Shown: positions 10,409 through 57,257, counted from the stretch's first letter. The stretch: DNA of 64,000 nt from a virus (IMGVR_UViG_3300035698_017111:32001-96000), one strand, 5' to 3'. Numbers and translations are program-made. The notes: a model not told the origin generated them from the sequence alone.

Positions 10409-11071
10409 ATGAAAACTCCAACAAGAATCCTCGTGGACTGGAGTGGCACAATCATCAGAGACTCTTCTATATTTCAGCAAATGGCAGAAGCGTCTGGATC
10501 ACCACATGCCATGTATTGTGGGCCACAATCATGGGATAACGTTAAATCAATAGGCCATTTTAATGCGTTTGATGAAATGACTAGTGGCAATCCATCACAG
10601 TTCTTTCTTTTGGGTGAAGAGTATTCAGACGCAGTAAAAACAATAAACTCTTACTGTGGATCCATGGGTATGGCATCCAAAACAGAAGTTCATGTCGTGT
10701 ATGACAACAAACCATCAATAGGAACCAAGACAGATGTTCTTACTGGTATGTTGGCAAAAGACTTTCAGGAAAGAGGTGGTAAGGCTAATGGTTTTTATGT
10801 AGACCCCAACAAACAGGGATTGGCAAAACGTCTACAAATAAAAATAGCAGTAGAAGATGATCCAAGAATTGCTCTATCTTTGGCTAGTCTTGGAATAAGG
10901 GTAGTTCTTATTTTGCGAAAATGGAATAGACTTTTTAATAAGGAAACTCTCCGGCTTATTGTACCGGAGCAAAAAACGATTCCTCTCATCGAAAACATCG
11001 TCTTGGTTGAAGATTGGATTGAGGCACGAGAGGTAATCGACAAACTCATAGAGGAGGTAGGATCAGAATGA
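10409..11071 (+). CDS. HAD-superfamily 5'-nucleotidase-like protein
   Basis: ILVDWSGTI motif I variant, AVEDDP, KWN, VEDW. Confidence 0.6.
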   Translation: MKTPTRILVDWSGTIIRDSSIFQQMAEASGSPHAMYCGPQSWDNVKSIGHFNAFDEMTSGNPSQFFLLGEEYSDAVKTINSYCGSMGMASKTEVHVVYDNKPSIGTKTDVLTGMLAKDFQERGGKANGFYVDPNKQGLAKRLQIKIAVEDDPRIALSLASLGIRVVLILRKWNRLFNKETLRLIVPEQKTIPLIENIVLVEDWIEAREVIDKLIEEVGSE

Positions 11072-11286
11072 AGAAGGGTACTTTTTGGACAGAGGCAAGA
11101 GTTAAGAGATTGACGAATTACATGGAACAGTATAGTAGTCACTCGAACAAGTACAATAGGATTTCTAAACGATTTCGCTCAGCAGTTTCGCCAAACGCCG
11201 TCTACAAGAAGCTTGGTCGAATGGGTCTTCTTAAGGCCAATTGGTGTAAGTCGATTAAAAATACTAGAAAACGTTCACTTCGATAA
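11068..11286 (+). CDS. small basic putative DNA-binding protein
   Basis: WTEARVKRL...AVYKKLGRMGL, HTH/Myb-like pattern. Confidence 0.45.
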   Translation: MKKGTFWTEARVKRLTNYMEQYSSHSNKYNRISKRFRSAVSPNAVYKKLGRMGLLKANWCKSIKNTRKRSLR

Positions 11287-11304
11287 GGATCGTTTGGGAG
11301 AACT

Positions 11305-11345
11305 ACAAGCTAGTTCGACTAATCATTGGACTAGCTTGTTCCTTT
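11305..11345 (+). terminator. hairpin, possible terminator
   Basis: ACAAGCTAGTT...GACTAGCTTGT inverted repeat in intergenic space. Confidence 0.45.
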
Positions 11346-11348
11346 ACC

Positions 11349-12212
11349 ATGTATAATCATAAACTAATCATCGGTGACTCTCGTAGAATGGACAATCTAG
11401 AAGATCAGTCTGTTCATTTGGTAGTTACGTCTCCACCATATTGGAAAATTAAAGATTATGGCGGGGATAATCAAATTGGCTATGGGTCTAATTACGAGAA
11501 GTATGTAGAAGACCTTAATTGTGTTTGGGATGGTTGTTATAGAGTATTGCACGATGGTTGTAAATTGTGCGTTAACATAGGTGATCAATTCTGCAGAGCC
11601 GTAAATTACGGCCGATACAAAGTAATACCTATTCGCAGTGAGATAATTCGATATTGTGAATATCGTGGTTTTGATTACATGGGTGCTATTATTTGGCAAA
11701 AGGTTACCAACTGCAACACGACAGGTGGTGCTCGTATTATGGGAAGTTATCCATACCCAAGGAATGGTATCGTGAAGATAGATTATGAATTTATTCTTAT
11801 CTTTAAGAAACCTGGAATATGCCAGCCAGCTAGTAAGGAAATAAAGGAAAAATCTAAATTAACAAAAGACGAATGGAATTCTTACTTCTCTGGACACTGG
11901 AATTTCAGTGGCAAGAGAAGAACTGAAGAACACATAGCTCCATTCCCAGTAGAACTACCACGAAGACTAATAAAGATGTTTAGTTTTGTTGGAGAAACCG
12001 TTTTAGACCCATTTTCAGGGAGTGGAACAACAGCAGCTGCAGCTTTGCGGCTTGATAGAGAATCTATTTCGTATGACACTCAAGATAAATATGTTTATGG
12101 ATCTGCAAATCGGTTGTTAAAAGATGTCGGTATCTTTGCTGACAAATACAATGTATCTTTGGAGAAACAATGCCAGGAACAAAGCCCACTAGTGTCATCG
12201 TACCTGTCTTGA
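11349..12212 (+). CDS. N4/N6 DNA methyltransferase
   Basis: GDSR, VTSPPY, HIAPFP, VLDPFSGSGTT. Confidence 0.93.
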   Translation: MYNHKLIIGDSRRMDNLEDQSVHLVVTSPPYWKIKDYGGDNQIGYGSNYEKYVEDLNCVWDGCYRVLHDGCKLCVNIGDQFCRAVNYGRYKVIPIRSEIIRYCEYRGFDYMGAIIWQKVTNCNTTGGARIMGSYPYPRNGIVKIDYEFILIFKKPGICQPASKEIKEKSKLTKDEWNSYFSGHWNFSGKRRTEEHIAPFPVELPRRLIKMFSFVGETVLDPFSGSGTTAAAALRLDRESISYDTQDKYVYGSANRLLKDVGIFADKYNVSLEKQCQEQSPLVSSYLS

Positions 12213-51099: not shown

Positions 51100-51808
51100 T
51101 TATACGACATTGTATATCTTGTCGAGATCTCCCCTAAGGAATTTCGCTAAAGAAAACTTACCTTCAGGACACTCAACACGATCTCTTCTATAGTTATAGT
51201 TTCTATTATAACCACCACGTTTTCCTTTATTTTGATTCTGAGAGTCATATTGTCCCTTGATGTCTGTGTGTTTTTTCTTCTCACTAATCACAGACATTTT
51301 CTTGGATAGTCGTTCAAAAGCTATCTCTTTGTTTTTTCTCTGATCACGAGTATCACAACATTCAACGGTTATTCCGTCGTATTGCAAACGAACACCAGAG
51401 AGAGTTTTATTTCTTTTCTGTCCACCACAACCAGAATCCTTATAGTACGTAACCCTAACCTTTGATTTATCAATAGTGTTCTCTTCGACTCTATTCTTTT
51501 CGACAAGAACGACATTGATCAAAGAAGTTTGGACCCGGCCACGAGTCTCCGTTGGAGGGACTCTCTGGACACGGTGAACTCCAGGCTCTCTTCAGAACCA
51601 GTCTCTACATCCAGGTCCAGTTAATTCTAATTCTGTTTGTTTTGCGGTTTGAGACACAACACGGGCTTTAATGTTATGTTTTGCAGCATGCTTCAGGTAA
51701 GCCTTGAGTAGGTCCTGAGCAAATAGGCGGGAATCCTGACCTCCCTCACCAGGCAAGATTCGAAGATAGAGGGGGCTAAAGACAACTCCTTTTCGTTTGT
51801 GTTTTCAT
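51100..51808 (-). CDS. class I peptide chain release factor (RF1-type PxT, lacks domain 1), about 235 aa via +1 frameshift at CTT-TAG and readthrough of an in-frame TGA
   Basis: Conceptual product MKTQTKRSCL/SPLYLRILPGEGGQDSRLFAQDL...WF*REPGVHRVQRVPPTE...GCGGQKRNK...RNYNY; AGGAG RBS before the ATG at 51808. Confidence 0.85.
51775..51790 (-). other. prfB-like programmed +1 frameshift cassette
   Basis: AGGAGT TGT CTT TAG C: internal SD, 3-nt spacer, CUU-U slippery site, stop codon. Confidence 0.85.
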
Positions 51809-51894
51809 AATTACTCTCCTTTTTAGTATTTCTCATATCAATACGATTTTCTTTATGCAAATACCTCGTTACATGATTTATCGTATACTACAGG

Positions 51895-52371
51895 ATGGAG
51901 AACGATATGACAAGTGAAAAATGGGAACCACTGAAAGATTTAGGACTCGATACTAATCCATGCCAAGAATGTGGTGGACGATGCTGTAAAGAAGGAGTCC
52001 ATATAGAACAAGGGAAATTCGTTCCTGGTCTAACGGAGCAAAGCATTAGATGGGCAGAGTGTTGGGAAGGTGTTGAAACATATGTGTACTCTACTCAACT
52101 TGGAAAGCTTTGGGGAATCAAGATACCAAAACTACAATGTAAACATATTGGCCAAGACGGTGGTTGTTCAATACACGAGAACAAACCACCTGCCTGTAGG
52201 GAATACTTCGGCTTGAAGCCAACTGGACCAGATCCAGACTGTCTTTTGATTCGTGAACTATTACGACAAGACAAAGTCCCATACGAAGATTGGGTAAAAC
52301 AACTTTGGCCAAAAGGATTACCACTGACCAAATGGTTGAAAGAGTTAGGAATTGTTCTTATACCGAAATGA
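51895..52371 (+). CDS. YkgJ-like Zn/Fe-chelating CxxCxxCC protein
   Basis: CQECGGRCC, CKHI...CSIHENKP.ACREY. Confidence 0.8.
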   Translation: MENDMTSEKWEPLKDLGLDTNPCQECGGRCCKEGVHIEQGKFVPGLTEQSIRWAECWEGVETYVYSTQLGKLWGIKIPKLQCKHIGQDGGCSIHENKPPACREYFGLKPTGPDPDCLLIRELLRQDKVPYEDWVKQLWPKGLPLTKWLKELGIVLIPK

Positions 52372-53895: not shown

Positions 53896-54015
53896 GACTG
53901 GAACGGATAGTCATTACAGTGATAGCTCATTTTGGTAGAGCATCGGCCTTCAACGCCGGTTGTTATAGGTTCAATTCCTATTCACCCAAACAAACTGACT
54001 CTCAATAATCCAGTC
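53896..54015 (+). ncRNA. Y RNA-like element 2 (YrlA-like tRNA mimic, anticodon TCA)
   Basis: GACTGGA/TCCAGTC and AGTCA/TGACT stems enclose a D arm, anticodon arm (loop CTTCAAC) and T arm GGTTCAATTCC; acceptor stem only 4 bp. Confidence 0.7.
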
Positions 54016-54265: not shown

Positions 54266-54393
54266 TTGCTAGGAACGGCACGTTGATACAGACAAAATAG
54301 CTCAGCTGGTAGAGCTGTTGGTATTCTAACCAATAGGCGTAGGTTCAATTCCTACTCTTGTCACCTTTACTCAACTGGTAATCACCCTAGCAA
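54266..54393 (+). ncRNA. Y RNA-like element 3 (tRNA mimic, atypical 8-nt anticodon loop)
   Basis: TTGCTAGG/CCTAGCAA and GTTGA/TCAAC stems enclose a cloverleaf at 54291-54363. Confidence 0.7.
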
Positions 54394-54522: not shown

Positions 54523-56193
54523 ATGACTACAGCACTAGCACCAAAAACAAGTAAGATGGTTACTGATCTGACCGAGAGAGCTTCGATTCAGGTTCCAGAA
54601 AGCGTGGACACATGGTTGAAAACCGTGGATGTTGACACTGTCGCATCTATTGTGGATCGTTTCCTCGACGTTTGTACCACAGTCACTGGACGAGCCACCC
54701 ACTACAACTCCAAAGCCGATCAAGAAAGACTCATGGCAGGATTGCATACTGAGCTTTTCGACGTTGACCGTGGTATGTATGGTCTTCTAGTGTGCCTTGA
54801 GGGTGCAATGGATATCAGTAGACAAATGGCCATGTCCAGATTGCTTGATAATCCAAGAGAAGGTGAGGCTTTGCTTACAGTACATCAGGAAAATCAACTC
54901 ATCAGTCACCTTGCACTGAGCATGCCTCCACAAAGAATGTTGAAACTCTACAAGAAATTCGTAGAGCAAAAGGTCAACAACTCTCGTGCTCGTAAACTGA
55001 TCCTTCGAACGATTATTCAGCAACCAGTTGGAAGACTGGAGCATTGGGCGGTCATGTATCGTTCCAAGTTGGCTTCGGCAATCCGACATGCACTGGGACT
55101 CAAGTCCAGTTACGTTCTGGAGAAGACTCTTGAGAGGAAACTCTCCGGTAAGAGAATGTCTACAGACCAGAATAAAACTATTCGTAAACTTGTTGGTAAG
55201 TTTATGAAAGAGATCTACGATAACAATGATACCAAGAACAAAAAGTTGGAAATCATTGGCTTTATTCTCGGCATTGAAACCGGAATGGAATTGAAGAAAA
55301 CCAAGGCATATGTTGCTGTGAAGGAAGGAAATTTCGCAGCTGGTAAAGTTCTTCCTCTCGAAACAATGGAAGGTCTCAGAAGCGTTTACCACCCAAAGAA
55401 AACGGCCAAAGACATCCTTGAACTAACCAAGGATACTATGACCAAGGGTCAGAAGATGGTTCGACAGAGACAGGCCAAAGAAGTTGGTGTTAAGATTGAC
55501 CTAGATCCAAAGCAGTACGATCCTGTCAAACTTTACATCTACTGTTACGAGCAAGGTATCGATGGCCCAATCATGAAGGCTCTTGAAGAGAAGGCACAAA
55601 GTGCCGTTAAGAACCTCCCCCTTCGTTTTGGGAAGATTGGCATCCTGCTTGACAACTCAGCTTCGATGTTTGGCCACAAGACACAAGGAAACCGTCCAAT
55701 GGCAGTTGCCTTGTCGATTCGTGACTATCTGTCGGCAGCAGCCGATGAAGCAAATGTCGAACTCGTCAACAGACCTGCGAGATTGACAAAGAAGAGAAAA
55801 GCTCTTCCTCTTCCAGAGGGTGACACTTCTCTCGCACAAGCTCTCGTTCAAATGCTTAAAGAAAAGAACGAAGCTATCTTTGTTATCAGTGATGGTTATG
55901 AGAACGCTCCGGCCGGACGTTTTGCCGAAGTTCTCAAGTTGGCCAGACAGGTCGGTGTGAAGACACCAGTGTACCAGATCAGTCCTGTTGCAGCAGCAGA
56001 AGCATCAGGTATCAAACATCTGGCACCGGGGCTCGTTGAAGCTCTTCCAGTCTCGAACGCAAATAGCCTTGGAACAACATTGTTCAAGGCACTGTTGGTG
56101 GCACGTCCCAAAGAAGGACTTCGTGTTCTTATTGGAATGGGCATGAAACAGCTTGATAACATTAAGAAGATCGATTACGAAGGGAGAAAGTAA
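54523..56193 (+). CDS. Ro60/TROVE-like protein: helical N-domain plus C-terminal vWA
   Basis: MIDAS motif DNSAS, GDTSL, ISDG; about 370-aa helical N-part; adjacent to Y-like RNAs. Confidence 0.65.
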   Translation: MTTALAPKTSKMVTDLTERASIQVPESVDTWLKTVDVDTVASIVDRFLDVCTTVTGRATHYNSKADQERLMAGLHTELFDVDRGMYGLLVCLEGAMDISRQMAMSRLLDNPREGEALLTVHQENQLISHLALSMPPQRMLKLYKKFVEQKVNNSRARKLILRTIIQQPVGRLEHWAVMYRSKLASAIRHALGLKSSYVLEKTLERKLSGKRMSTDQNKTIRKLVGKFMKEIYDNNDTKNKKLEIIGFILGIETGMELKKTKAYVAVKEGNFAAGKVLPLETMEGLRSVYHPKKTAKDILELTKDTMTKGQKMVRQRQAKEVGVKIDLDPKQYDPVKLYIYCYEQGIDGPIMKALEEKAQSAVKNLPLRFGKIGILLDNSASMFGHKTQGNRPMAVALSIRDYLSAAADEANVELVNRPARLTKKRKALPLPEGDTSLAQALVQMLKEKNEAIFVISDGYENAPAGRFAEVLKLARQVGVKTPVYQISPVAAAEASGIKHLAPGLVEALPVSNANSLGTTLFKALLVARPKEGLRVLIGMGMKQLDNIKKIDYEGRK

Positions 56194-56195
56194 AA

Positions 56196-57257
56196 ATGGC
56201 TAAGACGACTACCAGCATCAGAGAGGTCCTGAGAGGGACCAAAACGGGTCGTATGCAGTCTGTGGGTAGAATGCAAGTCATTCCACTCATACTGGATATG
56301 CCCGAGGACAACAGGTTTACCTCACCAGAAATTCTCTGGATTAAGAACCGTGATTACGGTAGCATTAATCTAGACAACAGAGGTGATGTGACAACGATTG
56401 CACCAGTGGGTGCTACGTATCTCACCAAACAGTCAGCACAGGATCATGCCATCATGAATGCTGAGCTTGTTAAGGCAAAATCTGGAGTTGAAGTAGATAC
56501 GGCAGCTTGTGTCCAGTCAAGCCAAGGTGGAACTATTCGTAACGAGCAAACCGAACTCTTGATTCTGCCATATGCCCTTCGAGAAGCTTCGATTGGTATG
56601 AGAAAGACCAAGAGATACAATAAACTATGGGATGATATCGGCAAGTTCAACAAACTCGCTAAATGTGGATCTGGTAGCGAGCATCTCGAATACTTCGTAA
56701 AAACGCATGAGTCCACAATGGATGATTTCGTTGCACAGTTCGAGATCGTTCCTGGACAGGTCGGAGCAATTGTTCTGATTGATGGTGAAGTCTACGGAGT
56801 TGAAAGAGCACCTAACTGTCAGTACTGGGAAGGTGTCTGGTCTCCACTGATTCGTATGTGTTACGGATCGCAGGCTATCATCGCAGATCTTGAAGACAAG
56901 GCAAAGAAGGGTCCACGTACCAGTAACGCAATGCTAAATCCCCTTCCTTCTGATGTTGAGGATCTCGATGATATCGAGGAAGCCCTCAAGGAAGCAGACG
57001 AACAGTATTCTGAAGCTTCTATGGATGTTGTTCGCAACCTTCTGGACGATGAGTTCAAGAGAGAGGATGTCGCAAGACAATCTTTCCTCACTGACGAAAA
57101 GGAGACTGTGAATCTCGACAGAGTGACCGTAAGCAACGACCAGTTCGTTGGACAGGTCTTCCAAGACGGTCCTCAGGTTTGTTACGCATCAATGGTGACG
57201 AAGAAAGGCTGGAAGAAACATGCCAGCTGGAGAGCGGCACCGGCGTTTGATGCCTGA
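56196..57257 (+). CDS. ARPP-1/DUF6569-like protein
   Basis: AQDHA, ACVQSSQGG, FEIVPGQVGAIVLIDG..GVE pattern. Confidence 0.6.
   Translation: MAKTTTSIREVLRGTKTGRMQSVGRMQVIPLILDMPEDNRFTSPEILWIKNRDYGSINLDNRGDVTTIAPVGATYLTKQSAQDHAIMNAELVKAKSGVEVDTAACVQSSQGGTIRNEQTELLILPYALREASIGMRKTKRYNKLWDDIGKFNKLAKCGSGSEHLEYFVKTHESTMDDFVAQFEIVPGQVGAIVLIDGEVYGVERAPNCQYWEGVWSPLIRMCYGSQAIIADLEDKAKKGPRTSNAMLNPLPSDVEDLDDIEEALKEADEQYSEASMDVVRNLLDDEFKREDVARQSFLTDEKETVNLDRVTVSNDQFVGQVFQDGPQVCYASMVTKKGWKKHASWRAAPAFDA

Follow-up and report, generated by a model that had tools for sequence, protein, structure and literature searches.

A gene on the minus strand of a stretch of DNA (the window, 64,000 nucleotides) from a large, uncultured phage is likely to be an intact and deliberately gated gene for a minimal class-I release factor (RF) of the RF1 type, whose synthesis would depend on a prfB-style +1 frameshift at UAG and on passage through an in-frame UGA. 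The window belongs to a virus record of 146,772 bp (~147 kb) that is 77% complete. Since the relatives of this gene keep both recoding signals, and since purifying selection acts on it, the gene appears to be a control device, not a broken gene or an assembly error.

Anatomy of the gene and its product

The features of the gene are collected in Table 1. The first-pass annotation had described a Shine-Dalgarno (SD) sequence, an ATG, a short leader ending in CTT-TAG-C, and a +1 frame with one TGA, a GGQ motif and a final TAA, and all of these coordinates and strings hold. The start codon occupies 51808-51806 (-), and relatives have GGAG or GGAGG at the equivalent initiation site. The last four codons of the leader are AGG AGT TGT CTT, so that AGGAG (51790-51786) and CTT (51781-51779) precede the TAG (51778-51776), whose next base is C. 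Downstream of this TAG, frame 0 is closed throughout. The +1 frame, which from 51777 begins SPLYLRILPGEGGQDS, is open as far as the TAA at 51102-51100, save for a single TGA (51594-51592) around which the protein reads WF*REPGVHRVQRVPPTE. The conceptual product has 235 aa (10 aa from the leader and 225 aa from the body), the length given for it before. That the ORF track is incomplete was also borne out, as the gene appears in the standard ORF list as 54-aa and 140-aa pieces only.

Table 1. Features of the RF gene and of the neighboring tRNA-like RNAs, in window positions
Feature	Position (strand)	Remarks
Shine-Dalgarno AGGAG, initiation	51816..51820 (-)	7 nt 5′ of the ATG; from the sequence
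Frame-0 leader ORF	51776..51808 (-)	ATG + 9 codons, MKTQTKRSCL; ends at TAG 51778-51776
+1 frameshift cassette, AGGAG-UUGU-CUU-UAG-C (putative)	51775..51790 (-)	internal SD-like element, slippery CUU_U, RF1-specific stop, C
+1-frame body	51100..51777 (-)	225 codons + TAA; RF1 domains 2, 3 and 4, without domain 1
In-frame UGA	51592..51594 (-)	body codon 62; context UUC UGA A; predicted to be read as Trp
PPT tripeptide	51550..51558 (-)	RF1-type PxT anticodon mimic; inside HRVQRVPPTETRGRVQTS
GGQ peptidyl-tRNA hydrolysis motif	51418..51426 (-)	G118, G119 and Q120 invariant in alignment A1
Promoter-like TTGTCA-17-TAGTAT	51885..51913 (-)	upstream of the RF gene; 9/12 matches in consensus scan; weak evidence
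tRNA-like RNA, UCA anticodon	53917..53988 (+)	ARAGORN and Rfam tRNA, 51.9 bits; 2.3 kb from the RF gene
Second tRNA-like RNA	54291-54365 (+)	ARAGORN and Rfam; 8-nt anticodon loop UAUUCUAA

A single copy of the string GGAG-N4-CTTTAG is present in the window, where 0.10 would be expected, and the 146,772-bp record has no second one. The SD-like element of the window, which can be written as AGGAG-N4 or, in the register of the relatives, as GGAGU-N3, is slightly off the GGAGG-N3 that the relatives possess. A spacer of 86 nt lies between the ATG and a divergent gene with a CxxCxxCC domain. The consensus scan that gave the promoter-like sequence of Table 1 found four such sites in the region, with 2.6 expected.

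Based on profile and structure comparisons, the product is predicted to be an RF1-type factor that consists of domains 2-4 only. Pfam matched it to PCRF (PF03462, positions 102-194 of 194) and to RF-1 (PF00472). Among NCBIfam profiles, prfA ranked highest (152.6 bits, from profile position 107), followed by prfB (107.7), PrfH (47.7) and ArfB (30.3), and all four scores lie under their curated cut-offs (400 for the prfA equivalog and 166.65 for PrfH). The best PDB sequence match was Thermus thermophilus RF1 (residues 110-313); alignment to this protein showed that the equivalents of Q181, P184-x-T186, T194 and GGQ are retained, with Gln as the equivalent of His193. In the window protein, the GGQ lies within SGCGGQ. 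An AF2 model (pLDDT 89, built on 30 relatives) had ribosome-bound RF1 as its top Foldseek matches (TMq 0.89, rmsd 2.4-2.7 Å). Neither the sequence nor the ORF list held any coding sequence for domain 1 upstream of the gene. Ordinary RF1 loci possess 106-130 more in-frame codons than the window gene, and the shortfall in domain 1 relative to RF1 is ~105 residues. It is these matches, together with the absence of domain 1 upstream, that lead us to the prediction. The earlier RF1-type reading of the PxT motif agrees with a prfA score that exceeds that of prfB. In contrast, a suggested role in ribosome rescue found no specific support, since the residues that read the stop codon are kept. The protein therefore resembles RF1 (prfA; TIGR00019, NF001859) in domains 2-4, in the Q181, PxT and T194 equivalents and in its GGQ, but RF1 has domain 1, and the window protein scores well below the RF1 cut-off and belongs to a clade with sequence signatures of its own.

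Recoding signals among relatives

A search of 5.8 billion proteins revealed this clade of short RF1-like proteins, which are 43-58% identical to the window protein and carry the signatures PPTE, SYYKDSGxGGQ and ECCxTRDQRKNKE. Most of its 28 members in the protein database are N-terminally shortened calls, and these fragments start right after the position of the window TGA or at other internal points. DNA loci of relatives (L-numbered; protein entries are P-numbered) were obtained from metagenome and genome scans. In IMG/VR, no close relative was found with a single-protein query, and a profile search gave just a second, distant clade. GenBank phage matches had at most 39% identity.

The first-pass annotation had called for a test of whether the SD-CTT-TAG cassette is conserved, and six independent relatives (47-57% identical) were found to possess the same leader and GGAGG-N3-CUU-stop, with UAG-C in four and UGA in two. 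In L025, L026, L027/28 and L029, an SD and an ATG are followed by a leader of 10-12 codons that ends CGG AGG NNN CTT TAG C, and the RF body lies in the +1 frame. This layout recurs in L030 and L108, with CTT TGA G and CTT TGA C, respectively. The leaders of L025, L026, L028, L029, L030 and L108 (10-12 codons) all end in R-R/S-C/S-L-stop. While GGAGG-N3-CTT is present in 6/6 of these relatives and a GGAG-T-N2-CTTT block is invariant in the six-locus alignment, the leader codons are variable. With the second clade included, the stop and following base are UAG-C in the window, L025, L026, L027/28, L029, L007 and L009, UGA-C in L108 and UGA-G in L030. The first beta-strand, L-x-I-h-P/A-G-E-G-G, is encoded immediately past the shift site. 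Initiation at a downstream start instead of a frameshift was considered and rejected, as no ATG, GTG or TTG in the +1 frame past the shift site is conserved among the relatives.

Exactly one in-frame TGA is found in domain 2 of eight relatives (L027/L028 counted once), at four different columns. L025, L027/28, L029 and L031 have the TGA at the column of the window, whereas it lies five codons upstream in L026, at NP-TGA-RAF in L030 and L108, and at DS-TGA-LFA in L032. Because the cassette and the single in-frame TGA recur in independent relatives, their presence together in the window gene is beyond chance.

Two kinds of relatives bear on what the signals could be for. L030 and L108 keep the PPT motif though their cassette stop is UGA, and therefore the product need not recognize the stop codon of its own cassette. 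This speaks for sensing of host RFs rather than for strict self-regulation, and the cassette may report general host RF activity and not solely that of the product. Self-regulation cannot be the universal logic unless the L030 and L108 proteins also read UGA. Further, P0005 and P0006 are uninterrupted members of the window's clade, indicating that the gates are dispensable.

Several individual relatives show further peculiarities. The N-terminus of P0002 (234 aa) reads MQILNLWECL-F-ETLYLQ..., in which leader and cassette (W-E-C-L) apparently run into the body without a change of frame, as would result if 2 nt gained in the T run had turned the shift site into sense codons. L032 (700-860) has no 5′ cassette and shows a frame change near QN-NKGKRG besides its TGA; it is a 1-kb contig, and the change is possibly an assembly indel. 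L108 (G001:C1, 120,681 bp), the closest relative in the genome collection, is a phage-like contig binned into a Candidatus Saccharibacteria MAG, and the contig name of L026 reads 'Hain-H43-01um', possibly a 0.1-µm filter fraction, although this is a reading of the name only. For L108 and L026, these details could hint at ultra-small (CPR) hosts, or could simply reflect a binning artefact.

The tree placed the window's clade (14 rows, support 100/99) apart from the second IMG/VR clade of short phage RF1s (100/100). In that second clade, L007 (7844-8530) and L009 (7992-8655) have TGY CTT TAG CGG in the middle of domain 2, where a +1 shift is required, without GGAGG. L003 (7992-8670) and L005 (3171-3850) have two in-frame TGAs (TGA-A and TGA-C), of which the second lies where L007 and L009 have their shift site, and L009 combines one TGA with its shift site. 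The positions of recoding differ between the two clades, and these genes have thus acquired such signals more than once. A T-arm-like GGTTCGAnTCC was also observed within ~200 nt upstream in L003, L005 and L009.

Reading of the UGA and alternative explanations

UGA is an established leaky stop codon, and on this basis we predict that the default reading of the in-frame UGA would be read-through by near-cognate tRNA-Trp. Such read-through would account for the location of the TGAs at Trp columns, as TGG to TGA is one transition. In alignment A1, uninterrupted relatives carry Trp at three of the four TGA columns (FW[KR]E in P0003, P0004, P0007 and P0010; NPWRVF in P0012; DSWLFA in P0005 and P0006), and the TGA column of L026 has no uninterrupted counterpart. 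Eight loci have A as the base 3′ of the TGA and one has C, and both UGA-A and UGA-C are weak termination contexts. Without a suppressor, only a few percent of ribosomes may read through the UGA, and the yield could be very low. A hairpin that stimulates read-through was looked for at the UGA and is unsupported in the window's clade: it has just 6 bp, is AU-rich and contains the stop itself, with a covariation term of +0.16 and a z-score of -1.67 (single sequence, 96-nt segment).

The phage genome is written in the standard code: under table 11, ORFs cover 95% of the record, and a global TGA=Trp code was rejected, since tables with TGA or TAG as sense codons (including table 4) gave no better tiling. 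The ORFs of at least 100 aa end in TAA (79), TAG (31) or TGA (28 of 139 long ORFs; ~20%), and UAA and UAG together end 80% of the long ORFs. No other gene that needs TGA read-through was found in the 77%-complete record. Candidates with in-frame TGA or TAG at genome 25559-26422, 14600-17455 and 114690-115754 and at window 10409-11356 proved on inspection to be neighboring genes that share a frame, start-codon artefacts or extensions that do not code. The standard code also holds for the 120-kb L108 contig, where 48 of 151 ORFs end in TGA.

These observations bear on an explanation that we consider unlikely, namely that the gene belongs to a code-change or timing module in which the UGA is efficiently read as Trp by a phage opal suppressor, the RNA at 53917-53988, and the RF is made only after this RNA. 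A tRNA with a UCA anticodon is indeed called by two programs close to the gene, the TGAs do occupy Trp columns, and modules of RF1, Sup-tRNA and TrpRS are known in TGA-recoded phages (10.1101/2021.08.26.457843). However, the three top acceptor-stem pairs of this RNA are mismatched, and it has a scaffold in common with the second tRNA-like RNA, consisting of a GGAACGG-N9-TACAG leader and a complementary leader/trailer stem (window 53900-54005 and 54272-54390). For these two reasons we do not count it as a working suppressor, and its action on UGA is doubtful. The record, in which these two RNAs are the sole tRNA calls, also lacks a TrpRS, and TGA serves as an ordinary terminator in about a fifth of the phage's genes and, within this 77%-complete record, as an in-frame codon in the RF gene only. 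Moreover, the gated gene occurs without tRNA(UCA) on the 120-kb L108 contig, and no such tRNA was found in L029 or within 10 kb in L026. As for the second tRNA-like RNA, its acceptor stem is intact, and Rfam aligns its loop UAUUCUAA as UCU with one inserted base. The pair lies just upstream of a 556-aa gene without a Pfam match and an ARPP-1/ARPP-2 gene (54523-57257).

It is less probable still that the full-length factor is not the functional product, and that the 140-aa ORF (TTG 51522), made by itself, acts as a codon-independent rescue factor like ArfB or PrfH, or that the protein is of the PrfH type and works with the phage RtcB on damaged ribosomes. The 140-aa ORF includes the GGQ, domain 1 is missing as in PrfH and ArfB, both of which gave weak NCBIfam matches, and an RtcB gene is present in the genome (L226, genome 117193-118239 (+), outside the window; PF01139, 220 bits). 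In PrfH (TIGR03072), however, the normal elements that read the stop codon are lost and the gene adjoins rtcB2, whereas the window protein retains its decoding residues, scores 47.7 bits for PrfH against the cut-off of 166.65 and 152.6 for prfA, and is encoded 34 kb from RtcB, with which it forms no operon. No SD precedes TTG 51522, and the conserved elements for codon reading (GxGG-D, Q, PxT and T) lie in the segments upstream of the TGA and of this TTG, on which strong purifying selection acts in the same frame. Comparison of L028 with L029 gave dN/dS values of 0.086 for the segment 5′ of the TGA and 0.112 for the one 3′ of it, whereas the wrong frames gave 1.2-1.9, and both halves are thus translated in one frame. 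From the synonymous divergence of this pair (dS ~0.8-1.2), the TGA and the cassette have persisted while about one substitution accumulated at each synonymous site. The same dN/dS of ~0.1 speaks against a decaying pseudogene or an assembly error, with a 1-nt indel and a nonsense mutation, which is the most improbable of the explanations weighed here and has in its favour the two disruptions within one gene of a metagenome-assembled record. Both kinds of disruption recur with their flanking signals in independent assemblies from different samples, the catalytic and decoding motifs are all intact, and there are no further stops or shifts. Uninterrupted homologs with no conserved cassette had been named in the first-pass annotation as the mark of a simple pseudogene; six relatives instead keep the cassette and a single TGA.

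Proposed mechanism and comparison with known systems

The frameshift of prfB is the textbook case of autoregulation by recoding. Like the bacterial prfB +1 site (AGGGGG, 3 nt, CUU UGA C), the window gene is a class-I RF gene with an early stop after a slippery CUU_U, an SD-like element 3-4 nt upstream and a C after the stop, and in both, low termination is predicted to lead to the shift. The likeness to prfB geometry, with UAG for UGA, had been noted before and is confirmed, as the SD-like run, the 3-nt spacer, the CUU_U-stop and the following C are the parts that make up the mechanistic model of the prfB site (PMC12421855). The systems differ in that prfB encodes RF2, uses UGA or UAA and has a leader of 25 codons, whereas the window gene is viral, uses UAG, encodes an RF1-type PPT protein without domain 1 and belongs to a group with leaders of 10-12 codons, one subclade of which (L030/L108) uses a UGA cassette in an RF1-type protein. 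In the window gene, the in-frame UGA also follows as a second gate. A 2025 survey found TAG in 0/8,164 prfB motifs, the stop being UGA (98.6%) or UAA, and no programmed shift in prfA in 12,753 bacterial genomes, making the frameshift exclusive to RF2 (PMC12421855). Similarly, the +1 CUU-stop sites in RECODE are all in prfB (PMC10885494).

The combination of a frameshift and read-through has a parallel in the Mimiviridae, as had been pointed out, and the parallel is real. The class-I RF gene of Mimivirus and Megavirus needs both events, a combination that was called unique to those viruses (PMC3521657), and a 2016 review stated that read-through control of RF1 or RF2 genes was unknown and that the Mimivirus gene was the sole RF gene needing both (PMC5009743). 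Both genes are viral RF genes with one frameshift, one read-through and a bacterial-style autoregulatory cassette. In contrast to the Mimivirus gene, which is an eRF1/aRF1 homolog in a virus of a eukaryotic host, the window gene is of the bacterial RF1 type and belongs to a phage, and the resemblance is therefore convergent, an analogy and not membership in one family. In the full-text literature that was searched, we found no description of a phage RF device with both gates.

Phage RFs themselves are well documented, and huge phages encode RF1, RF2 and tmRNA (PMC7162821). The TGA-recoded Jade phages encode RF1, Sup-tRNA and TrpRS in standard code (10.1101/2021.08.26.457843; PMC10746230), and resemble the window in that a tRNA-like RNA with a UCA anticodon lies close to an RF1-type gene of the phage. 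The Jade module, however, serves a genome with many in-frame TGAs and has a functional Sup-tRNA(UCA) and often TrpRS, whereas the window phage has no TrpRS, a structurally defective 'tRNA' and, in its 77%-complete record, its only in-frame TGA in the RF gene. Other translation genes were also observed in the record. A full-length tmRNA (L107:865-1263 (+), genome 123864-124262, outside the window; Rfam RF00023, 141 bits, E 1e-56) has a tag that ARAGORN predicts to be DEAMPIAA. An IF3 homolog (IF3_N and part of IF3_C; L106:691-1755 (-), genome 114690-115754, also outside the window) has TAG as its stop codon, and a sigma-70 family gene (regions 2 and 4) comes after it without a change of frame. 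With the tmRNA, the IF3 homolog and the RtcB gene present in the same genome, the RF is part of a larger translation and RNA-repair toolkit.

The sequences establish the anatomy of the gene, its conservation and the purifying selection on both of its halves; that ribosomes shift frame, insert Trp and respond to RF levels, and that the product is active, is our inference. As previously claimed, the full protein would need both recoding events, the signals for which are conserved and under selection. Ribosomes would start at ATG 51808 and, after translating ten codons, pause as CUU occupies the P site and UAG-C the A site, with the internal AGGAG paired to 16S rRNA. With plentiful RF1-type activity, supplied by host RF1 and presumably by the phage product, the 10-aa leader would be released. 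When this activity is limiting, tRNA-Leu would slip from CUU to UUU (+1) and the body would be read from AGC. After another 61 codons, the ribosomes would meet UGA-A, a weak stop read by RF2 only, and only those that insert an amino acid there, predicted to be Trp by way of near-cognate tRNA-Trp or some other suppressor, would finish the 235-aa factor. In this phage, the neighboring UCA tRNA-like RNA might feed into the UGA gate. As the two gates are in series, the output would approximate the product of two bypass frequencies, being low and rising steeply when RF1-type and RF2 activity both fall. The product is predicted to terminate at UAA and UAG and, given the known role of domain 1, which it lacks, would probably be independent of RF3.

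It is plausible that the gene acts as a two-input sensor of host termination capacity, as the first-pass annotation had proposed. More specifically, we suggest, tentatively and with slightly less than even confidence, that a domain-1-less RF1 gated by UAG (RF1-type) and then by UGA (RF2) could serve large phages as a self-limiting 'termination-capacity meter'. If so, the phage would top up termination at UAA and UAG only when the host RF pool is depleted or trapped in infection. The prfB switch would then have its first natural counterpart on the RF1 side in the amber cassette, and read-through control of a bacterial-type RF gene, long hypothesised, would have its first natural case in the UGA.

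In conclusion, the genes described here serve as a warning that annotation pipelines call such genes as fragments. They would offer a natural amber-responsive +1 switch in which the rules for SD, spacer, CUU and stop are directly testable, and a natural domain-1-less RF1 as a handle on what domain 1 and RF3 contribute. For the biology of these viruses, the finding would mean that phages have more than once equipped a single RF1-type gene with both recoding devices, and at varying positions, and it may be evidence that large phages monitor or buffer the termination capacity of their hosts.
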